NCBI GenBank assembly: GCA_041650515.1 | Contig: JBAZLA010000002.1 | Span: forward strand, 103,659 to 167,658 | Source of the DNA: Patescibacteria group bacterium | GTDB taxonomy: Bacteria; Patescibacteriota; Patescibacteriia; JACRDY01 | Length of the DNA: 64,000 nt | Direction: 5' to 3' | Shown here: piece after piece, positions 10,995 through 62,220 of the stretch | Position numbering within the stretch: position 1 is the stretch's first letter | Layout: the number at the start of each line of letters is the position of its first letter | The notes under the pieces: model-generated | Told to the model about the DNA's origin: nothing | Databases searched by the model: none | Seen by the model: only the letters and a program-made list of their open reading frames with translations | Made by a program: the position numbers and the translations under genes

Positions 10995-11588
10995 ATGACT
11001 AACAAAATTCTCCAAACTTCTTTTTATAACCGACCAACACGTCAAGTTGCCCAGGATCTCCTGGGTAAAATTATTATCCGTCAAATCGGCCGCAAAAAAT
11101 ATTACGGCCTTATTACCGAAACTGAAGCTTATTGCGGGCCTCAGGACCAGGCCTCCCACGCTAGCAAAGGCCGCACCCCACGCACCGAGGTAATGTTTGG
11201 CCCAGCCGGCCACACCTATATCTATCTGATTTACGGTCTGTATCATTGTTTCAATATTGTCACCGAAAAAAAAGACTACCCAGCCGCGGTCCTGATCCGT
11301 GGCGCCCTCCCCTTACCAAAGGAATGGTTGGGTGGGGTTACTCTGCCCCTTTCCAAGAGGGAGATGGCCGAAGGCCAGAGGGGGTTAGCTAGTGGCCCAG
11401 GCAAACTCTGCCGTTATTTTAAAATTGATAAAACACTAAATAACCTCGATATTACTAAACCCAATAAACTTTGGCTGGTCGACAGCGGGCTAAAACCCCA
11501 AAGAATCATTCGCCGGCCTCGGGTCGGCGTTGATTACGCTGGTAAATACAAAGACAAAAAATGGCGGTTTATTACCCGATTTTCTTGA
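10995..11588 (+). CDS. mpg: DNA-3-methyladenine glycosylase (Mpg/AAG family)
   Basis: ATG overlaps TAA of upstream gene (taaATG); motifs GLITETEAYCGP, MFGPAGHTYIYLIYG, AVLIRGA, GPGKLC typical of Mpg family. Confidence 0.85.
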   Translation: MTNKILQTSFYNRPTRQVAQDLLGKIIIRQIGRKKYYGLITETEAYCGPQDQASHASKGRTPRTEVMFGPAGHTYIYLIYGLYHCFNIVTEKKDYPAAVLIRGALPLPKEWLGGVTLPLSKREMAEGQRGLASGPGKLCRYFKIDKTLNNLDITKPNKLWLVDSGLKPQRIIRRPRVGVDYAGKYKDKKWRFITRFS

Positions 11589-12168
11589 TACTATTTCTAT
11601 CTTCATCCCAATTTAAAGGATTATTGATAATATATTCGCTGATTTTTTGGTATTCTATTTGATTACGAATAATGTGTTCGTAATAATTTCGTTGCCATAA
11701 TCGTTGATCAAACGGCGACCAATTATTTTGTTTAACGTTTTTAATATATTCGTTGGTGGACATGGTTTTGAACCATTGCACCACCCGGGGTATTAATTGT
11801 TGGGAACGACGTAGGGGCAGACCCGGCGGTATTGGCAGACCTCTGTGTCTGCCCTGTTGGTTCGGGCAGACACAGAGGTCTGCCCCTACGTCGTCGATAA
11901 TTTCCACAATTCCATGAATATGATTTGGCATAACCACAAACACACCCAATCGAATGGTCAAAAATTTGTTCGGTAGTTTAGACCACCATTTTTGTGCCAT
12001 CCGACCCGCCGGATTTAAAATCATTCCCCCGTTTTCCACCCGACCGAATAAATAAACCATATTTTGGCTACAGATGGTAATGAAATATTGCCCCATTCCC
12101 GAATAATCATAATCGGGCAAGCGGATAGAACGACGGTGATGGTAATCGGGGTTATACATAGATAACAA
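11572..12168 (-). mobile_element. REP-associated tyrosine transposase (RAYT / IS200-like Y1 HuH transposase) gene with intragenic REP-like insertion
   Basis: HuH motif MPNHIHGIVEI and catalytic Tyr motif EYIINNP; about 30 extra residues (VGADLCVCPNQQGRHRGLPIPPGLPLRRS) between the two motifs are encoded by a GC-rich compound palindrome. Confidence 0.75.
11806..11894. repeat. GC-rich REP-like compound palindrome (BIME-like) inside the RAYT ORF
   Basis: Outer 18-bp perfect inverted arms acgacgtaggggcagacc / ggtctgcccctacgtcgt; inner units ggcagacctctgtgtctgccc and gggcagacacagaggtctgcccc are reverse complements of each other; GTAG/CTAC tetranucleotides flank the hairpins as in REP sequences. 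Confidence 0.8.
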
Positions 12169-12221
12169 AAGATAAGGCCTATCCTGACTCTATCATGGTG
12201 GACATTAAAGAAATCTAAAAT

Positions 12222-12245
12222 AAAAAAAGGGACGACGATCGTCCC
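12222..12245 (-). terminator. Rho-independent terminator candidate downstream of GC-rich island gene
   Basis: On minus strand GGGACGA-TCG-TCGTCCC (7-bp GC stem) followed by TTTTTTTATTTTAG; additional GC hairpins at 12275-12288 and 12300-12315. Confidence 0.5.
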
Positions 12246-12315
12246 CGACTAAGCTCGGACTAACCCACAAGGGTGGCTGGTCCCAGCCCAGTTAATTGTG
12301 CTGCTTGTAGGCAGC

Positions 12316-12681
12316 TTATTTTTTGGCTTTGGGCTTCTGGCGCGACTTGGGCCGACACCGGCTATTCAGCCAGTCGTCGAACGATCCGACGCTGGCAAAA
12401 TCCGCCTCGTTCGGCTTCTTGCCGTTGACGGCCATCAGATGACGCGCGGCCACCTGCATCACCCCGGTGCCTGACGGATGCCGGAAACGGGCTACCACAC
12501 CCGCTCCCTGCGAGTCGTGACCAAGGCCAATAATCTCCAGACGCTGCCCCAGGGCCGGCGCCAGATGGGCGATAGAGCCAATCGTGGCTCCGCCGCCAGC
12601 GCACGGGCTATTCCGGTTGATCTTGGCCACCACACCAGGATCAACCGATTCGAAAGTCACAGTAATGAATTCTCGACGCAT
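12316..12681 (-). CDS. Small basic protein of unknown function, GC-rich island gene B (paralog of 13047..13448)
   Basis: ORF track gives 12316..12765 but AGGAGG lies 8 nt upstream of ATG at 12681 (MRREFITVTF...); C-terminal basic tail KSRQKPKAKK; region is about 60% GC versus about 40% elsewhere. Confidence 0.55.
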   Translation of the reverse strand: MRREFITVTFESVDPGVVAKINRNSPCAGGGATIGSIAHLAPALGQRLEIIGLGHDSQGAGVVARFRHPSGTGVMQVAARHLMAVNGKKPNEADFASVGSFDDWLNSRCRPKSRQKPKAKK

Positions 12682-13046
12682 AGGGGCCCCTCCTACCAAA
12701 GATTGAGGCAATTGTTTAAAAAGAACCCACACCCCAGCCCGCCTCATTAGGCTAAGGTGATTCACTGATTATTTATTTAATTACCATATTTTCAGTCTTC
12801 AGTCAATAACAATATTCTAAATAAAACAAAATGGGGCAGACGCGTAGTCTTACCCCGGCGCAAGATCGTGGGCAGGCGGGCCTTTGAATCAGCGCAAATT
12901 TCCTCTTTTGGGTTTCCTTCCCCCCTTGTGTGACCGCGCCGCATTGCGGTCGAAGAATTCAACCCCCTTGAGGAAGACGATATCGCTTGGTCAGAAGAGA
13001 ACACAAGGTAGCTCATCTGGCGAAGCGACAAATGCAAAAGGACGTC

Positions 13047-13448
13047 TTACGACCGGCGACGAACTTTGCCGCTGCCGCCGGACTGCTTCTTCTTGCCGCT
13101 GCCGCCGTTGCAGTGGAGCAGAAGAAATTCGCCGAGAAACGTCTCGGCATCCGTCAGATGCTGCTCGGTCGGTTTGATCTTATCGGCGCTCATGACATGC
13201 TGCGCCATGACCTGCAGATCACCCGGATTGAGCCGGCCTTGCAGAGCCTCAGGCAGGGCGAATCGGATGATCGGTCTTCGCAACTTGGGGTGATCAGCGA
13301 TTTCCACCACCGTAAGCTCATGACCGATCAACTGACCGAGTCGTTCGTGGTGACGAGCCTTACTCGGTCGGCCATTCAACACGCATTCACTGTCGCCATT
13401 GAGACAAACAGTGAGCCCCTTCGGAACCTCAACAAACTGAAACTCCAT
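13047..13448 (-). CDS. Small basic protein of unknown function, GC-rich island gene A
   Basis: GAGGT 7 nt upstream of ATG; C-terminal Gly/Lys/Arg tail; segment LQVMAQHVMSADKIKPTEQHLTDAETF aligns with VMQVAARHLMAVNGKKPNEADFASVGSF of gene B; preferred over overlapping plus-strand ORF 12987..13451, which lacks an RBS. Confidence 0.55.
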   Translation of the reverse strand: MEFQFVEVPKGLTVCLNGDSECVLNGRPSKARHHERLGQLIGHELTVVEIADHPKLRRPIIRFALPEALQGRLNPGDLQVMAQHVMSADKIKPTEQHLTDAETFLGEFLLLHCNGGSGKKKQSGGSGKVRRRS

Positions 13449-13569
13449 TAGCGTTACCTCTTCTTTCAGGGCATAGGAGAATGAGCTTTTAGTTGGTCTT
13501 CCGCCTTAGACCTCTGTATAGCCCTAAACGCCAAGGATTCGCCCCGTTGATCCTGACGTAATTATTCGC

Positions 13570-13599
13570 ATTATAAACAAAAAGAATAGTTCTTGTCAA
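13570..13599 (-). promoter_or_regulatory. Perfect consensus sigma70 promoter TTGACA-N18-TATAAT reading into the GC-rich island genes
   Basis: Minus strand: TTGACA (13599..13594), 18-nt spacer, TATAAT (13575..13570), about 115 nt upstream of gene A start. Confidence 0.6.
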
Positions 13600-13613
13600 C
13601 TATCTTCTTAATT

Positions 13614-13715
13614 GTCATTGCGAGGCCCGACGTAAAGTCGGGCCGAAGCAATCTCATGATATATCCACCAGATTGCTTCGTCGCTCCGCCGGCTGGCGGA
13701 GCTCCTCGCAATGAC
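13614..13715. repeat. 102-bp nested compound palindrome (closing stem plus three internal hairpins, all perfect Watson-Crick)
   Basis: Outer gtcattgcgag/ctcgcaatgac (11 bp); hairpin 1 gcccgac-gtaaa-gtcgggc; hairpin 2 cgaagcaatc-17 nt-gattgcttcg; hairpin 3 gctccgcc-ggct-ggcggagc; linkers 0-2 nt. Confidence 0.8.
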
Positions 13716-13757
13716 GTGGTCAATAAATTTGCTTTATTGTTTTCTTGCTTTATTGAC

Positions 13758-15857
13758 CTATTCCCAATGCACTCGCTCGGCCATTTCCCTTACCTTATCT
13801 TTGAGTAAATAATATTTACTTAATTCTGGATCACTGTGGATAACTTTAGCTGCCCACTCACGCGCTTGCTTAATGGCTGCTAAATCAAACAAACTAGCTA
13901 GCCGTAAATTAGGCAAACCACTCTGCATGGTGCCTAGGGTCTCACCTGGCCCGCGAAATTCTAAATCTTTCTCGGCTAGTGCAAAACCATCCTGGCTAGC
14001 CACTAACGCCGCTAGACGCCTAGCGGTTATCTCACTAGCCGATTCGGTAAATAAAAAACAATAGGATTGGTGCTCTGATCGACCCACCCGACCGCGGAAT
14101 TGGTGCAACTGCGCTAAACCAAAACGCTCAGCCCCTTCGATCATCATCACCGTGGCATTAGGCACATCCATGCCCACTTCCACTACGGCCGTGGCGACCA
14201 AAACTTTAATTTTATTAACCAAAAAATCTTGTCGTACTCGCTCTTTCTCCGCCGATTTTAACCGACCATGCAAAATGCCAATCGCATGTTCTGGAAAAAT
14301 TTCTTTGTCTAGTTTAATAAATTCTTCTTCCGCCGACTTAACGCCTAATTTGTCTGACGGATCAATCAATGGACAGATCACAAAAGCCTGTCGACCAGCT
14401 TCAATCTGCTGCCTAATAAATTGATAAGCCGGCCGATACTTATTAGATTCAATAATTTTGGTGATAATTTTTTTACGACCCAGCGGCAATTCATCAATAA
14501 TTGATAAGTCTAAATCGCCATAGATAGTCAAAGCTAACGACCGCGGGATTGGGGTGGCGGTCATTGATAAAAAATGAGGCAATAAACCGCTATTACCCGC
14601 TCGTTCTTTAAGCGCCTGGCGCTGTTTAACACCAAAACGATGTTGTTCGTCAACGATCGCCAGAGCTAAGTTTTTAAATTCAATCTTTTCTTGGATCAAA
14701 GCGTGAGTGCCAATAATAACGTCAATTTTACCGGCTTTAAGCATCTTAATCACCTCTGAGTGCTTTTTATTTTCTGCTTCACCTAGCGAGCCAAAAAACA
14801 ACTTAACGCTACCCCGAGTTAATAAACCAATGTTAATATCCGCTCCGGACAAGAGTTTACTCACAGTTTGAAAATGCTGATTGGCTAGTATCTCGGTTGG
14901 GCAGAGCAAGGCGGCCTGATATTTGTTACTAACAACATTAAGCATCGCTAAAGTAGCCACCACGGTTTTACCCGAGCCAACATCACCTTCGAGCAGCCGA
15001 TTCATTGGCTGATTTTTTTGTAGATCCTTCAGAATCTCCCAAGCCGCTTTACGTTGAGCCGTCGTCAGTTTAAATGGTAAACTAGCGACAAAATTTTTAA
15101 TCACTCCCTCTTTAAATTCTAAGCTACTGGAGTGGCTTTTTTCTAGTTCGCGACGCGCGAGTTGGTTTTGCAGCTGAATAATAAAAAATTCGTCAAACTT
15201 AAGCCGACGCCGCGCCTGCTGCAGCCTGGCTTGGCTATCGGGAAAATGGATCTGCCTGATAGCCGCTATCAGGCCGGGAAATTTTAAAGCTAAAATAATC
15301 TCCGCCGGCAAATAATCCTTAATACTTTTTAATTGGGTCAAAACGATCTTAATCAGATAACGAATTTGTTTAGAAGTTATCCCCTTGGTCAAGGGATAAA
15401 CCGGTACCAGCCGAGCGGTATGCGTCGGCCCACTAGCGGCTTTAACCTTGGTAATCTTTTCATAGCTTGGCGAATGAAATAAAATTCCCTTATCAAAATC
15501 AACCTTACCAGCAATAAAAACCTCATCGTTCGGCTGTAAAATTTTACTCACAAAGGGTTGGCCGAACCAAATAACTTTTACTGAACCAGTAATATCAGTG
15601 ATAATCGCTTCGGTAACTATCCGTCGCGCTCGCCAAGAACGGAAATTTTTAATCAATTCTACTCTGCCACGAACGGTCGCCGTAACCCCCGGCGCCAAAT
15701 CCCGAATATCAACTACCTGACTAAAATCATCATAGCGAAACGGATAATAAAAAATGAGATCGGCTATCGTCTCAATTTCTAATTTTTTTAATTTTGGCGC
15801 TAATCTAGCGGCAATTTTATTAAGATAACTAACCGGCGTTTTTAAATTAATCAACAT
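13758..15857 (-). CDS. recG: ATP-dependent DNA helicase RecG
   Basis: 699 aa; N-terminal wedge/OB region, helicase motif I DVGSGKTVVA, DEQHRFGV (motif II), C-terminal helicase domain motifs; canonical RecG architecture. Confidence 0.9.
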   Translation of the reverse strand: MLINLKTPVSYLNKIAARLAPKLKKLEIETIADLIFYYPFRYDDFSQVVDIRDLAPGVTATVRGRVELIKNFRSWRARRIVTEAIITDITGSVKVIWFGQPFVSKILQPNDEVFIAGKVDFDKGILFHSPSYEKITKVKAASGPTHTARLVPVYPLTKGITSKQIRYLIKIVLTQLKSIKDYLPAEIILALKFPGLIAAIRQIHFPDSQARLQQARRRLKFDEFFIIQLQNQLARRELEKSHSSSLEFKEGVIKNFVASLPFKLTTAQRKAAWEILKDLQKNQPMNRLLEGDVGSGKTVVATLAMLNVVSNKYQAALLCPTEILANQHFQTVSKLLSGADINIGLLTRGSVKLFFGSLGEAENKKHSEVIKMLKAGKIDVIIGTHALIQEKIEFKNLALAIVDEQHRFGVKQRQALKERAGNSGLLPHFLSMTATPIPRSLALTIYGDLDLSIIDELPLGRKKIITKIIESNKYRPAYQFIRQQIEAGRQAFVICPLIDPSDKLGVKSAEEEFIKLDKEIFPEHAIGILHGRLKSAEKERVRQDFLVNKIKVLVATAVVEVGMDVPNATVMMIEGAERFGLAQLHQFRGRVGRSEHQSYCFLFTESASEITARRLAALVASQDGFALAEKDLEFRGPGETLGTMQSGLPNLRLASLFDLAAIKQAREWAAKVIHSDPELSKYYLLKDKVREMAERVHWE

Positions 15858-15865
15858 ATCTTATC

Positions 15866-15937
15866 CGCCCTCAGTAGGAATCGAACCTACATTACGAGAT
15901 CCGCAATCTCGCGTCCTATCCATTGAACGATGGGGGC
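15866..15937 (-). tRNA. tRNA-Arg (anticodon GCG as parsed)
   Basis: Minus-strand sequence GCCCCCATCGTTCAATGGATAGGACGCGAGATTGCGGATCTCGTAATGTAGGTTCGATTCCTACTGAGGGCG folds as cloverleaf: U8, A14, GG18-19, anticodon stem CGAGA/TCTCG, loop TTGCGGA (U33, G37), T-loop TTCGATT; 3' end abuts recG start. Confidence 0.7.
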
Positions 15938-16148
15938 TTAAACGAACTGGAAACTAAATTAGACTTCTGAAAACCAACTCCGATTTTATCCATTGTCACC
16001 CTCCGGGTGATCCGCCTTTGGCGGAAACGATGGGGGCTTAAACGAACTGGAAACTAAATTAGACTTCTGAAAACCAACTCCGATTTTATCCATTGTCACC
16101 CTCCGGGTGATCCGCCTTTGGCGGAAACGATGGGGGCTTAAACGAACT
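15926..16148. repeat. Tandem direct repeat, 100-bp unit x about 2.2, each copy containing the first 12 nt of tRNA-Arg plus 88 nt of its 5' flank
   Basis: Unit aacgatgggggcttaaacgaactggaaactaaattagacttctgaaaaccaactccgattttatccattgtcaccctccgggtgatccgcctttggcgga repeated identically at 15926 and 16026; third partial copy 16126-16148; unit contains hairpins tcaccc-tcc-gggtga and ccgcc-ttt-ggcgg. Confidence 0.85.
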
Positions 16149-16262
16149 AAACAAAATAAAGCAAAAAAATAGTCTCAGCTTCATTAGCTTTCCCGCCTAG
16201 ACTCGCGTCCGGCGAGGCTGGCCCAAGTATAGTAAAAAAGATAAATAAAATCAAGATTAAAG

Positions 16263-16751
16263 CTAAAGCTTAAGCAGTCGACTCATAGCATCAGAAAATG
16301 GCTCATTTTCTTTAGTCAGGTCCTCATTTAGATACTTAAGTAGAATCTGTCTAACCTTAACTGGGTTACGATCCTGAAGCGGAATCTGAACCCGAGGTAA
16401 TAATATACTGCCAAAACTAAAATACAAATTTTTAACAACCGGCGGCTCATAGATCAACCAAAAGTTTTGGATCTCCTTGTAATTATAAAATTTCTCACCA
16501 ACCATAATACCATCTTCAAATATTGAAAATTTAATTTCCTTAGCTTCATTTGAGCTACGTAAAAATAAAATGATAGCCGTAATCAGGACAATCAGCGCAA
16601 ACAAAAAATTAGCCACCAAAACTGAGTATAATAACAGTAAAGCCATAATAATAATAGCGCCAATATACCATCCCCGGCTCCTTTCATATTGCACAAACTC
16701 GGAAAAACTCCAAGTCATTAATTCCTGACCATAATCATTCTCTGTTGCCAT
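16263..16751 (-). CDS. Small membrane protein, unknown function
   Basis: 162-aa ORF with two adjacent TM helices (YIGAIIIMALLLLYSVLVANFLFALIVLITAIILFL); no recognisable motif. Confidence 0.5.
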   Translation of the reverse strand: MATENDYGQELMTWSFSEFVQYERSRGWYIGAIIIMALLLLYSVLVANFLFALIVLITAIILFLRSSNEAKEIKFSIFEDGIMVGEKFYNYKEIQNFWLIYEPPVVKNLYFSFGSILLPRVQIPLQDRNPVKVRQILLKYLNEDLTKENEPFSDAMSRLLKL

Positions 16752-41705: not shown

Positions 41706-44700
41706 TTAACTTAAATTTGCGCTCTCCCCTTCTAGCTCAATCTTCTCTCGGATCACGGGCTCAGCTTGGCTAGCTAGATTAAGGTGGGCTGATTGGTATT
41801 TTTGATAACCAGGCTTAGAAGCGGTTAAATAGTATTCACCCTTAGAAACCAGGAAACAATATTGGCCCAAAGAGTTGGTAATCTCCGTACCCAGGAGTTT
41901 GTTGTACTGGGTGTCAAAAACGCGGATGATCGTATTCTTAATTGGTTTCTGACTCGCCCGATCACGAGTTTGACCAGGGTTAGAAAACATTATTGGCTTA
42001 ATCATTAAACGGTGAAATAGGACAAACAGGATAAGATGGACTACCAATAGACTAATCATTAGTCTAGTTGGGTAAATAATCACCGAGAGTAAAGAAAGAA
42101 CTGGACCTAAATAAGCAACGGCGTGTTGAAATTTTTTAAACCGGTGCTGGTGTAAAATAGCCAAATCGGACTGCTCCGGCAGATTGGGATCCAGAGGGAT
42201 ATTAAAATTAATAATATTACTCTCAGGCGTGGTCGTAATTGATTCGGCGTGATAAAGATTGACATAGACTTCATCTTCTTCTTTACCTTGAGTAAATTTA
42301 GAAGGATAGATAAAATTTGGCTTGGTCACAGTTAAATAATAATTGGTACCCGGTTCGGTAACAAAATAATAACGACCCAAACGATCAGTCACCTTGGTAC
42401 CCATTAGTTGGCCCATAAATTCGGGGTGAGCCAAATCTTTTTTGTATAACCGGACGATCGCTAGATCAACTGGTTGTTTGGAAAGCGAATTATAAACTAC
42501 GCCCCAGGTTTTTCGACGTTTACGGAATAAGAAAAATAGCGGCTCAGTAAAAAGATAAGGCAAATAAGGCAAAAAGCCGATAACCGAGGCAGCAGCCAGA
42601 ACATTGACGACCGACAAAGTGATAATAACCGGAGCGGCAATTCTTCGGGTGTCTCTTTCGACAACGGGGTTATTCAAGACTTTAGTCTGTAACACTCTAA
42701 TCGGCATTGAATTGATGATCTGTTTAATACCTGGGGCTTCCTTAATCTGCTGAGCGAAAGTAGCCAAAAATGATTCACCGGTTTGCCCAGCTATATTGAT
42801 ATTTAATAAACCATCAAATCGACAAAGATTCGAACAGCCATCGTCGTCGATTAAATTGCCATCATCGCATTGTTCACCCGATTCTAGAATATGATTGCCA
42901 CAAATCGGATTAGAAGTAATTAATTGTAGCTGACAGCTAACCGTGCAAGTATAGCCACTAGCTACACCATCAGTACCATCGCACTCCTCACTGCCTTCTC
43001 GGCGATTATCACCACAAACGGCTTGACCAGGTGGTATGATGCCCTCCAACTGACAAGCAGCCGAACAACCATCGCCGTTGTTCAGATTACCATCGTCGCA
43101 CTCTTCGCCTGATTCTAGATTACTATTACCACAAAATGGAGTAGAGGTGATCGGTTGTAGCTGACAAGCAACAGTACAGGTGTAGCCACTGATCACGCCA
43201 TCAGTGCCGTCGCACTCTTCGCCTGATTCCAGGATATTATTACCGCAGAATGGCGTCGAAGTGATCTTTTGAAGCTGACAACTGGCCGTGCAAGTATAAT
43301 CACTAACTAGACCATCAGCACCATCGCACTCCTCACTGCCTTCTTTAATATTATTGCCACAGACTGGAATATCGGTTTCATCATTATCACCAGCGGATGA
43401 GCAACCAGGGTCAGCCGGATAATCAATCTTGGTATCGCCATCATTATCAAGACCATCGGCACACTGGGCTGTGGGTGGTGGAGTAACAGTATCGGTTTCG
43501 TCGTTATCACCAGCGGATGAGCAACCTGGATCAGCCGGATAATCAATCTTGGTATCGCCATCATTATCAAGACCATCAGCGCATTCCGCGGGAGCCGTAC
43601 CAGACTCGGAATCATCATCCCAACTATTACAATCTGGATCAGCTAAGTCGCCAATACCGTAATCACGGTAGCCATCGCCATCATTATCCACCCCATCATT
43701 ACATTGATAACTGCCAATGATGGTAAAACTAAGCGGGGCCGAAGCGCTAGAGATCAGGCTGGTGATGGGATTCTGAACTTGAGCGATAATAGTATGAATA
43801 CCAGTTGGTAAAATAAGTGAACCAGAAAAGCTCCAGCTAGGACCAACAATTGGACCAAAACCAAAAACAAAAGGGTCGGAATAAATCGTCAAAAGAATAT
43901 TATGGCTACCATCGTCTTTAAGGCCATTAGCGCTAAAATCAACTCGCCGATAGTCTAAAGAATTATCATCATTACCAATACTGGCAACTTGATCTAAGTA
44001 GTGGCCATAACCAGTGTCGTAATAGCCAGGGGCTAAAGCAAGAATATTAATTATGGAAAAACCTGAAACCACGGGTGGGTTTAAGATTGAATCAGTCTCA
44101 ATATCATCCCAGCTCCCTTCACAACCCGGGTCAGCTAGGTCGATTTTACCATCTAAATCATTATCCAGACCATCGGCGCACTGGGATAATTCAGTACTAT
44201 CACTAGCCATCGAACAGCCGGGGTCAGCCGGATAATCAATCCGACCATCGCCATCATTATCCACCCCGTCTGAACATTGAGGTAAAGTGACCGGGTTAGT
44301 TTCATCATCATCAATGACACTACTGCAACCCGGGTCAGCCAAATCAATCTGACCATCTAAATCATTATCTAGACCGTCGGAACACTGATAAACTGGCGGC
44401 GGGGTAGAATCGTTCTCGTCATTATCCGTGGGGCTGCTACAACCAGGATCAGTGAGGTCAATCTTGCCATCACTATCATTGTCTATTTCATCGGAACATT
44501 GATAAATCGGGGGTACAATGATCGGGGCATTATATTCGTCCCCATCATTACCATCAACACAGCCTGGATCAGCTGGGTAGTCAACTAAGCCATCGCCATC
44601 ATTATCCACGCCGTCAGCACAAACGGGATGATGCCCACCACCTGAAGTAATTGCAAAAGATCCATCACTAAAATCAACCACGTTAGCATCAGGATAATCA

Positions 44701-57421: not shown

Positions 57422-59512
57422 CTATTCAATTATAGCTAATTTTAGACCAAAATTATAGCTGGGACCAAAAACGGAAAACTCTTTCTCAACTTGACCTAGA
57501 TAATCGAAAATCTTAACTGCTCGTCCAGTCCGTCGCTGACTTAAAACTAGATCTGCCCAACCATCTTTATCATAATCACCAACGGCCAAATTAGCGCCGC
57601 CTAAAAACTGCTGATCGTAAGCCAAAAATTCTTTTTTTAGATTACCAGCGTTATCAAAAATCTTTACCCAAGGAGCTGATTGACCAGCCGGAACAGTAAC
57701 AATTTCCACCCGCTGATTAGCATCAACGTCACCGGCCGCAATTTTGACTCCGCCCAAAAAACTTCGATCATAGGCAAAAAACTGAGCCAAGACTTTACCG
57801 GTGGCATCAAAAATCCGAACATGCGGTCCACCACCAATATTAGCCGCGGTAATTATTTCTTTACTGCCATCTAGGTTAATATCACCAACCGCGAGGTTAA
57901 CGCCACTAGTCATTTTTTTATCATAGGCCAAAAATTCTTTTTTTAGATTACCAGCGTTATCAAAAATCTTCACCCAGGGCGCCAAGTCGCTAGCTGGAGC
58001 GGTAACAATTTCTACCCGCTGATCAGCATCAACATCACCGGCAACCACATTTACTCCGCCCAAAAAATTTCGATCATAGGCAAAAAACTGAGCTAAGACT
58101 TTGCCATTAACATCAAAAATCCGAACATGCGGTCCACCACCAATATTAGCCGCGGTAATGATTTCTTTGACACCATCAAGGTTGACATCGCCGACCGCTA
58201 AGTTAACCCCGCCACGAAAAGATTGCTGATAAGCCAAAAATTCTTTTTCTAGGACACCGCTTTGATTATAAACCTGGACCATTGGTTCATAACCGGTCGT
58301 CGGGGCAACGATCAATTTACTATCTAGACTAAAAGTAGGTTGACTATTAACTAACGGCGGCTGGACAACCGTCTCTTTTCTATTCTTATTATATTCAATC
58401 GCCGCCCAAACCGCTTTACCAACATTTAACCGACCAGCACCAATTCGCCCATTTTTAAAAACCGGGTTAAGTTGATCAATATTATCAGTGTTATCAGTTA
58501 GTAAATCAAGAACTTCTGTCGGGGTAAATTCTTTATTTATTGACTTGAGTAAGGCCGCCGCACCTGAAACCAGTGGCGCCGCTAATGAGGTCCCCTCCCA
58601 ACCACCACCATAGTATTGATTAAAATCTTTATTATTAGGTATATAAATCTGAGTCGAATAGATCTCTTGACCAGGGGCGGATAGGTCTAAGCACTTTGAA
58701 CCATAATTAGAAAATGTTGATCGATAGTCTCGTTCATCGGTCGATCCGACACCAACCACCATCTTTTTGCCAGCTAAAGTTTTATAACAGACCGGATAAA
58801 ACGGCGTAACATCCAGATCTAAACCACCGGCCAACGGCGCATTGCCAGAAGCAGCAACCACAACTACACCAGCCCGATGAGCTCGTTCGATGGCCGCCTG
58901 CAGATCAGAATAAGGAAAATTGCCTTGAAAACTCAAATTTAAAACATCAGCACCATTGTTAATCGCATAATCAATAGCCTCAACTGTCGGACCGATTGAA
59001 GCCATTCCATTATTATCCAAAACCTTTAAAGACATTATCTTGCTCTTCCAGGTCACGCCAGTTATCCCCCAGAGATTATCACCTTGGGCGGCGATCAAAC
59101 CAGCAATCAGCGTACCATGGTTTGCCCCTTCAAAAGAATAATCCTTGGAAAAATCAACCCAAGGCTGGTTGTTCTTATCAACAAAGTTCCAACCGTAAAT
59201 GTCATCGGCATAACCATTATTATCATTATCAATACCATCGCCATCAACCTCATCATAATTAATCCAAATATTACCGCTGAGATCAGGGTGATCAATATCA
59301 ACACCCGTATCCAAAACGGCCACAATCACCTCTTCTGAACCAACTGTATAGTCCCAAGCTTGCGGTAAATTGATCTTCTCAACGTACCACTGCAAAAAAT
59401 AATCAGGATCGTTGGGTCTCAGCGCTGCCGCCGGGGACAAAAAAATAACCAAATTAAAAGTAATAATTAAAAAAGAGATTAAAAACTGGCTTTTTCTCTT
59501 GCTAAAACGCAT
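57422..59512 (-). CDS. Secreted subtilisin-like serine protease (S8) with five C-terminal FG-GAP-type repeats
   Basis: Signal peptide; catalytic D (VAVLDTGVD), H (NHGTLIAG), S (GTSLAAPLVSGAAALL); C-terminal repeats AVGDVNLDGVKEIITAANIGGGPHVRIFD x5. Confidence 0.85.
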   Translation of the reverse strand: MRFSKRKSQFLISFLIITFNLVIFLSPAAALRPNDPDYFLQWYVEKINLPQAWDYTVGSEEVIVAVLDTGVDIDHPDLSGNIWINYDEVDGDGIDNDNNGYADDIYGWNFVDKNNQPWVDFSKDYSFEGANHGTLIAGLIAAQGDNLWGITGVTWKSKIMSLKVLDNNGMASIGPTVEAIDYAINNGADVLNLSFQGNFPYSDLQAAIERAHRAGVVVVAASGNAPLAGGLDLDVTPFYPVCYKTLAGKKMVVGVGSTDERDYRSTFSNYGSKCLDLSAPGQEIYSTQIYIPNNKDFNQYYGGGWEGTSLAAPLVSGAAALLKSINKEFTPTEVLDLLTDNTDNIDQLNPVFKNGRIGAGRLNVGKAVWAAIEYNKNRKETVVQPPLVNSQPTFSLDSKLIVAPTTGYEPMVQVYNQSGVLEKEFLAYQQSFRGGVNLAVGDVNLDGVKEIITAANIGGGPHVRIFDVNGKVLAQFFAYDRNFLGGVNVVAGDVDADQRVEIVTAPASDLAPWVKIFDNAGNLKKEFLAYDKKMTSGVNLAVGDINLDGSKEIITAANIGGGPHVRIFDATGKVLAQFFAYDRSFLGGVKIAAGDVDANQRVEIVTVPAGQSAPWVKIFDNAGNLKKEFLAYDQQFLGGANLAVGDYDKDGWADLVLSQRRTGRAVKIFDYLGQVEKEFSVFGPSYNFGLKLAIIE

Positions 59513-62128: not shown

Positions 62129-62220
62129 ATCTCCAGCACCCCACCCTGTCCCTCCCCTTAGCAGGGGAGAATGCGTCTCCTCCCCTGCTAAGGGGAGGGA
62201 CAGGGTGGGGTGCTGGAGAT
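62129..62220. repeat. 92-bp perfect GC-rich palindrome (41-bp arms, 10-nt spacer)
   Basis: atctccagcaccccaccctgtccctccccttagcaggggag / aatgcgtctc / ctcccctgctaaggggagggacagggtggggtgctggagat; arms are exact reverse complements; 14 nt upstream of DUF559 start. Confidence 0.9.

Follow-up and report, generated by a model that had tools for sequence, protein, structure and literature searches.

Several described systems come close to the locus studied here. Rickettsia palindromic elements (RPEs), which are 100 to 150 nt long, and other bacterial elements are found inserted in frame in genes. Repetitive extragenic palindromes (REPs) and their RAYT gene are recognized, by the criteria of PMC3733652, from a GTAG or CGTC tag, extragenic location, high copy number, and the flanking of the RAYT gene by REPs. 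For mitochondrial DNA (mtDNA), PMC4478555 describes the GC clusters of yeast and cites the double-hairpin elements of Allomyces (Paquin et al. 2000) and the GC-rich palindromes flanking tRNA genes in Neurospora (Yin et al. 1981). Fragments of prokaryotic tRNA genes have integrated elements and CRISPR spacers as their known sources and are usually remnants of attachment (att) sites (PMC9897764). Here, we compare with these systems a tandem array of 100-nt units, each joining a piece of a tRNA gene to a GC-rich double hairpin, that lies directly upstream of tRNA-Arg(GCG) and recG on the minus strand of a patescibacterial contig (JBAZLA010000002.1, positions 103,659 to 167,658, assembly GCA_041650515.1); this 64,000-nt stretch, with a GC content of 42.9%, is called the window throughout.

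On balance, we read the array as non-functional scar DNA that arose stepwise: a dead 5′ fragment of the tRNA gene, split by a small element and recently duplicated. Its perfect head-to-tail copies, repeat-block layout, restriction to one lineage, and lack of coding or regulatory signals are those of a variable-number tandem repeat generated by slippage or unequal crossing-over. In contrast to such repeats, the unit in the window is a composite of tRNA fragment and element, the 23-nt repeat that would have founded the series is unexplained, and the copy number may or may not vary.

Anatomy of the tandem array

Tandem Repeats Finder (TRF) detected the array with a score of 446, 2.2 copies, 100% matches, and 0 indels, and a repeat search agreed. 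The 100-bp period, the exactness of the copies, and the coordinates given in the initial annotation were thereby borne out, as was its minus-strand tRNA-Arg, which both ARAGORN and Rfam recognize. The features of the array and of the gene that it precedes are as follows.

15926..16148, minus strand: perfect tandem array, period 100 nt, 2.23 copies (TRF)
15926..15948, minus strand: 23-nt direct repeat a, copy 1, belonging to the real tRNA
16026..16048, minus strand: 23-nt direct repeat a, copy 2
16126..16148, minus strand: 23-nt direct repeat a, copy 3, farthest upstream in the array
15996..16025, minus strand: 30-nt double-hairpin element, TCCGCCAAAGGCGGA + TCACCCGGAGGGTGA, proximal copy
16096..16125, minus strand: 30-nt double-hairpin element, distal copy with the same sequence
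15987..15995, minus strand: CAATGGATA, equal to tRNA nt 13-21, in the proximal fragment
16087..16095, minus strand: CAATGGATA, equal to tRNA nt 13-21, in the distal fragment
15949..15986 and 16049-16086, minus strand: 38-nt linker (X38), proximal and distal copies
15866..15937, minus strand: intact tRNA-Arg(GCG) with a C5.A68 mismatch in the acceptor stem (ARAGORN and Rfam RF00005)

Read along the minus strand, the flank extends to 16149 and is followed by repeat a (16148-16126), a block (16125-16049), repeat a again (16048-16026), a second and identical 77-nt block (16025-15949), and a last repeat a (15948-15926), whose final 12 nt are nt 1 to 12 of the real tRNA; the spacing between neighboring 23-nt repeats is 77 nt. 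Every repeat a consists of an 11-nt leader, AGTTCGTTTAA, and tRNA nt 1 to 12, GCCCCCATCGTT, and this 12-mer from the tRNA start occurs three times where 0.25 occurrences are expected by chance. There are two full units, 15926-16025, which is the tRNA's own, and 16026-16125, plus a partial one of 23 nt at 16126-16148, and the 88-nt flank is present twice, plus 11 nt. The earlier count of two further exact copies and a third partial one therefore included one full unit too many. Identity breaks off exactly at both borders of the array, and the perfect identity of the units within them speaks for recency, not conservation.

The order of parts within a unit is 11-nt leader, tRNA nt 1 to 12, 30-nt GC-rich double hairpin, tRNA nt 13 to 21, and 38-nt linker, and the junction of linker, repeat, and element reads …AGTTTCC AGTTCGTTTAAGCCCCCATCGTT TCCGCCAAAGG…. 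The two hairpins, each a perfect 6-bp stem with a 3-nt loop, lie between nt 12 and nt 13 of the fragment, in the D-stem. Directly after them comes CAATGGATA, a 9-nt match at a fixed position for which the probability by chance is 4^-9, and the difference between the intact tRNA and the fragment is exactly 30 nt at 12|13. The tRNA-derived part of the unit is a truncated 5′ fragment, nt 1 to 21, split by an insert. The initial description of the unit as 88 nt of flank plus 12 nt of tRNA was right about the repeated 12-nt start but missed that the flank itself holds tRNA nt 13 to 21 and the 30-nt insert.

For the linker, no source was detected. Local and semi-global alignments, with or without the leader, gave it no significant likeness to tRNA nt 22 to 72 (p = 0.03 to 0.33 against shuffles), and no homolog was found in the window or in the 127 loci fetched for comparison, which are numbered L001 and onward. 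We considered that the unit might be a decayed copy of the full tRNA, which is not demonstrable from these linker alignments. When the unit, the linker, and the 114-nt upstream flank were searched with blastn-short against the window and the 127 loci, the only matches were to the hairpin element. Rfam searches at E ≤ 1, covering 14.0-18.5 kb, 10.8-14.0 kb, and six related loci, returned only tRNAs and spurious matches; the unit, the hairpin element, and the inserts in related loci drew no match.

The 30-nt double-hairpin element

Searching the fetched loci for TCCGCC-N3-6-GGCGGA revealed adjacent hairpin pairs inside recG of other Patescibacteria, and two pattern scans of IMG/VR yielded twelve contigs. 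A signature composed of TCCGCC-NNN-GGCGGA and a second, co-varying hairpin is thereby known from about 15 separate sites, which are those of the window, L010, L084, the L018/L068/L106 clade, and the 12 IMG/VR contigs, and all copies are 30 nt long. The stem of hairpin 1 is constant and its loop is free, and the exact first hairpin of the window is also present in L106, L114, L119, and L123. The stems of hairpin 2 are TCAGCC/GGCTGA, TCCACC/GGTGGA, or TCCGCC/GGCGGA, and TCACCC/GGGTGA in the window. A pattern without constraint at two stem positions retrieved 14 loci (12 contigs), and in 13 of them the bases at these positions are Watson-Crick complements, as against a chance of 1/16 per locus, and a generic double-hairpin scan gives about 0.6 matches per 694 kb in shuffled sequence.

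Two sites in RecG reveal the boundaries of the insertion. In L084, GTHALI and QKNVKF are separated by an additional stretch of exactly ten residues, SARGGSASGG, which is found in none of nine other RecG proteins, and the proteins of L018/L068 and L106 carry SARGGSASGG / SAKGGSAPGG in the loop after the DEQH motif. At both sites, the element is an exact in-frame insertion of 10 codons. The insertions in L018/L068 and L106 probably go back to one event, since their RecG proteins are 85% identical. Besides coding sequences (CDS), family members are found at gene ends and in intergenic DNA, as in L010, where TCCGCCCAAGGCGGA + CCAGCCTATGGCTGA adjoins a tRNA-Ser pseudogene.

No target duplication was seen at the element sites. 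We also considered whether a flanking duplication might be a property of element insertion and rejected the idea, because the other sites have no flanking direct repeat: the longest string shared by their flanks is 6 to 10 nt, versus 23 nt in the window. The duplication in the window would therefore be a separate event. Neither hairpin has a second copy elsewhere in the 64-kb window, so the element has one insertion site there; one similar stem, GCTCCGCC/GGCGGAGC, lies at 13683-13702. From these sequence comparisons, we conclude that the hairpins of the window were inserted as an element, one that belongs to a dispersed family. The initial annotation had suggested that small GC hairpins mediated slippage; such hairpins are indeed present in the unit, but they are not mere slippage aids, since together they make up a discrete 30-nt insertion element with relatives elsewhere.

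What this family shares with mitochondrial GC clusters and double hairpins is a GC-rich unit of about 30 to 45 nt in an AT-rich genome, found between genes, by tRNA genes, and sometimes within genes, with conserved stems and variable loops. Unlike the GC clusters, it is bacterial, has a fixed length of 30 nt, shows no AG/TAG-type target duplication, is unrelated in sequence, and is mobile only by presumption. With RPEs and REPs it has in common that small palindromic repeats can sit in frame in conserved protein genes and in RNA genes. In contrast to REPs, however, the element in the window starts with TCCG, carries no tag, occupies one site in 64 kb, and belongs to a family found inside CDS; a Y1_Tnp-like open reading frame (ORF) at 11572-12168, about 4 kb away, is not flanked by the 30-nt element, and no link between the two is shown. 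The family is undescribed in Rfam, and the literature searched, on tRNA introns of the candidate phyla radiation (CPR), hairpin repeats, and tRNA fragments, contains no description of the element or of the split-fragment architecture. A 30-nt unit would rank among the smallest bacterial insertion elements, and this one is tolerated in frame within a conserved helicase. Because it is common to ultra-small Patescibacteria and phage-labeled contigs, the element may serve as a marker of DNA exchange and as a handle on whatever enzyme would move it.

Hairpin-split tRNA fragments in related loci

The order ComF-like gene, two tRNA-Ser genes, 162-aa ORF, tRNA-Arg(GCG), and recG is widespread and conserved, and the tRNA-Arg of the window is therefore in its ancestral place. 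RecG of the window assigns the contig to Patescibacteria and is at most 66% identical to that of any relative. None of 23 relatives has a copy of the first 10 to 12 nt of the tRNA upstream of the orthologous tRNA, and in L083/L111 (RecG 65%), the nearest loci compared in full, the tRNA is preceded by a plain leader of 64 nt. Since the relatives lack it, the array is lineage-specific as far as these sequences reach. The initial annotation had named conservation of the tandem structure across divergent relatives, with a promoter function, as grounds against its own reading; no relative has the array, although a hairpin-split fragment beside an intact gene recurs. An exact-protein look-up of the 162-aa ORF, with two alternative starts, found no other assembly. 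A Logan contig with identical RecG (SRR8542065, L001) stops inside the tRNA at nt 19.

The recurring fragments take several forms. L112 (RecG 66%) is a mirror image of the window: after the tRNA follows a second copy of nt ~37 to 73 and the trailer, and the T-loop of this copy is interrupted by 51 nt of GC-rich sequence that begins with TCCGCC. L113 begins inside an insert similar to that of L112. In L004, L043, and L050, a 5′ fragment is interrupted by a GC hairpin at nt 10 to 13 and resumes up to …GGATA or CTCAGC, and in L012 nt 1 to 22 are followed by a 36-nt hairpin and then by nt 23 to 41. L004 and L043 also have 3′ fragments. In both, complementary arms enclose the intact tRNA-Arg, which lies within an older copy of the same tRNA that is riddled with hairpins (L004 2760-2975; L043 2715-2973). 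The acceptor stem (GTCCCCA/TGGGGAT) and T stem of the outer copy in L043 still pair, with a sequence unlike that of the inner gene. One 40-nt double hairpin recurs in L010, on the minus strand at 1487-1526 and at 1765-1804, where it occupies the identical GGTTCG|AATCC T-loop site of broken copies of tRNA-Ser(GCT) and tRNA-Ser(TGA), each of which adjoins an intact gene; a small ORF at ~1190-1400, judged to be GIY-YIG-like by eye only, separates one of the fragments from the intact gene beside it. A strict seed-chain test scores 5 of 47 distinct tRNA-Arg loci, to which manual inspection adds several.

Related structures are found at tRNA-Ser genes in four lineages, where GC-rich structured elements of 110 to 170 nt follow the gene (L059 399-575 and 852-1208, L011 2027-2197, L007 1107-1277, L029 858-991). 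Each ends in an exact copy of the last 12 to 19 nt of the tRNA, from the T-loop to the 3′ end. They have the motifs GAAGTGAA and GGGATGAGAAG in common, some contain an antisense T-arm-like stretch, and two stand in tandem in L059; Rfam has no match for them.

The split fragments lie tens of bases from the gene and are interrupted by hairpins, so neither integrated elements nor CRISPR spacers fit as their source. Single-copy essential tRNA genes in reduced genomes seem to be recurrent sites of duplication, GC-hairpin invasion, and decay, with a bearing on how a minimal tRNA set is kept up, on automated tRNA annotation, and on island prediction in metagenome-assembled genomes (MAGs). We offer a wider proposal tentatively, as something possible and not as something probable. 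Patescibacteria and viral-labeled contigs would share an undescribed family of 30-nt double hairpins that inserts cleanly, without target duplication, into CDS in frame and into the D-arm or T-loop of tRNAs, and that, together with other GC-hairpin inserts, would repeatedly knock out one copy of duplicated tRNA genes and leave split fragments next to the survivor. The array would then be a fresh, possibly copy-number-variable example, and the C5.A68 mismatch of the working tRNA might stem from recombination with the fragments. What merits further study is the family of elements and the repeated appearance of such tRNA fragments in Patescibacteria.

We also observed that two independent Logan k=31 contigs from different samples and species break off within the D-loop of tRNA-Arg(GCG), L001 at nt 19 and L112 at nt 18, which suggests a graph branch there in both samples.

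A proposed stepwise origin of the array

The account that we favor has three steps. A local duplication would first have produced a redundant 5′ region of tRNA-Arg(GCG), comprising the leader and nt 1 to 21 or more, upstream of the working gene. The 30-nt double-hairpin element would then have been inserted precisely at 12|13, in the D-stem of the redundant copy, where it would be harmless, whereas the same insertion in the working gene would destroy the tRNA. In the last and very recent step, the 100-nt block would have been copied once more, either by slipped-strand mispairing or by unequal crossing-over between the 23-nt repeats. Of the three readings put forward in the initial annotation (att-site integration, promoter-region amplification, and slipped-strand duplication), only the last survives, in the form of either slippage or unequal crossing-over.

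Transcription of the tRNA probably begins upstream of the array, with a start predicted near 16219, and the only promoter-like site for the tRNA lies there:

16226..16254, minus strand: TTGATT-17-TATACT, upstream of the whole array (consensus match only)

RNase P would then trim a leader of about 280 nt, and the array would merely lengthen the precursor.

Several points weigh against this account. The copy number comes from a single short-read MAG assembly, which L001 neither confirms nor refutes. The founding step is not reconstructed, and the linker has no detectable source. No further linker copy stands to the left of the array, and a simple series of duplications would therefore call either for an additional deletion or for a 23-nt repeat that was already present and whose origin is unexplained. 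In tRNA fragments, GC-hairpin inserts are far commoner than their background density of about 1 per 100 kb predicts. Some targeting of tRNA DNA is likely, or else a link, mechanistic or selective, between duplication and invasion by hairpins. Finally, absent signals are the sole argument that the array would lack a function.

Alternative explanations

An assembly artifact is unlikely but deserves the first hearing. The true locus could hold one 100-nt unit, or a different or variable number of them, if the assembler had circled a de Bruijn loop arbitrarily, as might happen with copies that are 100% identical in a metagenome-assembled contig. The span from linker through repeat to element over two units, 177 nt, exceeds a typical 150-nt read, and the Logan assembly with identical RecG breaks in the tRNA without bridging the array. 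However, at k > 24 a second unit requires real block-repeat-block k-mers, and the final k of an assembly is normally larger. Moreover, the base architecture of fragment, element, and intact tRNA needs a span of only 123 nt and would stay even with one unit, and analogous structures are present in independent assemblies from other samples and assemblers.

We also doubt, to a similar degree, that the array is the scar of a rescue or replacement. Hairpin elements, or a cassette carrying a tRNA, would here insert site-specifically into the D-arm or T-loop of a tRNA gene, survivors would be those that hold or gain a second intact copy, and the invaded copy would decay. Most of the fragments (window, L112, L004, L043, L050, L012, and L010 twice) do have GC-hairpin inserts in the D-arm (nt 10-13 or 21|22) or the T-loop, and the nesting of an intact tRNA within an older copy in L004 and L043, with outer stems in L043 that pair in a differing sequence, is in keeping with replacement. 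The same 40-nt double hairpin at an identical site in two tRNA-Ser genes of L010, with the GIY-YIG-like ORF (by eye only) nearby, points in the same direction. Yet the TCCGCC family is not specific to tRNAs, being found in recG CDS and at gene ends, the inserts differ in sequence between lineages, fragments occur in only ~5 to 8 of 47 orthologous loci, and no enzyme is identified. Rescue alone would not explain the perfect second unit either.

Site-specific integration, the first explanation offered initially, is improbable. The 23-nt repeats would be att-like cores and the 77-nt blocks the remains of tandem integration at the 5′ part of the tRNA, and the succession of repeat, block, repeat, block, and repeat does reproduce the attL-E-attP-E-attR topology of a tandem double integration. 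Beyond the usual origin of prokaryotic tRNA gene fragments (PMC9897764), a partial tRNA copy as a direct repeat beside an intact gene is itself a likeness to described att-site fragments (PMC9897764; Williams 2002), and the copies of 12 to 19 nt from tRNA-Ser 3′ ends that flank 110- to 170-nt elements in related loci are in keeping with it. Such systems, however, are kilobase-scale elements that come with an integrase and usually repeat the 3′ part of the tRNA, and their integrases typically use sublocations in the anticodon loop, the T-loop, or the 3′ end (Williams 2002 as cited in PMC9897764). Here, the repeat is the hairpin-interrupted 5′ end with its leader, at a spacing of 77 nt. The block contains no gene, the ORFs that cross the unit being implausible and 21 to 37 aa long, and it is derived from the tRNA and not from foreign DNA, since it contains tRNA nt 13 to 21. 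Among the 18 ORFs scanned with Pfam between 5.1 and 25.3 kb, none matches an integrase or recombinase family, in agreement with the initial statement that no integrase is nearby; the sole match to mobile DNA is a weak, partial Y1_Tnp. Nor did a counterpart turn up elsewhere: searches for the 22-nt leader-tRNA junction in the metagenome collection, whose searchable set seems not to include the source contig itself, and for the tRNA-element junction in the viral collection gave no match. Taken by itself, the array has the look of a neutral tandem duplication within the leader of a tRNA, and it serves mainly as a warning that partial tRNA repeats are not always att sites.

A functional leader is very improbable. 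Its units would act in cis as promoters, as processing or decoy sites pairing with the 3′ acceptor strand, or as regulators of recG, whose closeness to the tRNA (described below) makes a coupling of folding and expression possible; the full leader plus tRNA also folds slightly better than shuffles (z = -2.4). The unit itself folds no better than shuffles (z = -1.2), and a consensus scan found no sigma-70-like hexamer pair in it, the sole site being the one upstream of the array; the suggestion that a promoter region was amplified is therefore not supported. The absence of the array from all relatives examined, the closest included, and the perfect identity of its copies, a mark of recency and not of conservation, argue in the same direction.

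We know of no splicing endonuclease in Patescibacteria, and none was looked for here. The last reading, an archaeal-type intron-containing or split tRNA whose hairpins are introns removed at the RNA level, is scarcely credible: the short GC-rich hairpin inserts at the D-arm and T-loop do resemble, in kind and position, those of archaeal multi-intron and split tRNA genes and their non-canonical introns (summarized in PMC10714607), but the fragments here are truncated and bacterial, removal of the insert cannot yield a tRNA because the fragment stops at nt 21, an intact intron-less copy adjoins, recG of other Patescibacteria holds the same 30-nt element within its translated frame, and Rfam finds no tRNA in the units.

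The tRNA-Arg gene, recG, and their neighborhood

The working tRNA-Arg(GCG) scores 58 bits against Rfam RF00005, with a gathering score of 29, and its mismatch is flagged. Full 7/7 acceptor pairing is found in 99 of 101 distinct tRNAs from the window and the fetched loci, and the tRNA-Arg of the closest relative has T5:A68 with a 3′ strand identical to that of the window. The C of C5.A68 is present in all three copies of the 12-mer. One may speculate that C5 arose in the fragment, which would be free to drift, and that recombination between repeat copies then carried it into the working tRNA. In every Patescibacteria locus examined, the anticodon of the tRNA-Arg upstream of recG is GCG; ACG is the anticodon that most bacteria use at that position. 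Another observation concerns the 9-mer GGACGCGAG, equal to tRNA nt 22 to 30, in a GC-rich patch upstream of the array (16202-16210, minus strand), which could be an older tRNA remnant or a chance match (rough p ~0.03).

The tRNA had been placed between recG and a GC-rich island, which does not match the order found: the methylpurine glycosylase (MPG) gene, the island, recG, tRNA-Arg, the array, and the 162-aa ORF (ORF162). The genes on either side of the tRNA and array are as follows.

13758..15857, minus strand: recG, the synteny anchor for the comparisons (product MFA5076188.1 in the NCBI protein database)
16263..16751, minus strand: 162-aa ORF, conserved and syntenic in relatives, with no Pfam match

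The recG ATG lies 8 nt downstream of the 3′ end of tRNA-Arg, and the sole motif resembling a Shine-Dalgarno sequence for it, GAGGG, is inside the 3′ acceptor strand of the tRNA (window 15850-15880). Because of this arrangement, tRNA-Arg and recG are probably co-transcribed, and processing of the tRNA may affect the translation of recG.

The island (11589-13757) occupies ~2.2 kb between recG and the methylpurine glycosylase gene and is absent from L111, where both genes abut. It reaches 66% GC and contains the weak partial Y1_Tnp (IS200-like) ORF at 11572-12168 and a REPIN-like inverted hairpin pair at 11829-11889, for which no link to the 30-nt element is shown. At its edge, where it separates recG from the MPG gene, a cloverleaf-shaped GC-rich structure (13614-13715, minus strand) begins 43 nt after the recG stop, with an 11-bp outer stem and three arms, the stems of which include GCTCCGCC/GGCGGAGC and GCCCGAC-TTTAC-GTCGGGC. 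It has no Rfam match, and its folding energy (dG -70.9 kcal/mol, z = -11.4) is equaled by no shuffle.

Farther away, 62129-62220 is a perfect inverted repeat with 41-nt arms (ATCTCCAGCACCCCACCCTGTCCCTCCCCTTAGCAGGGGAG and its complement), a 10-nt spacer, and nested GC hairpins. The repeat-rich region of 43-58 kb contains imperfect tandem repeats at 43094-43331 (114 nt, 75%) and 57614-58207 (306 nt, 85%), and these long-period repeats probably encode repeat domains of large proteins.

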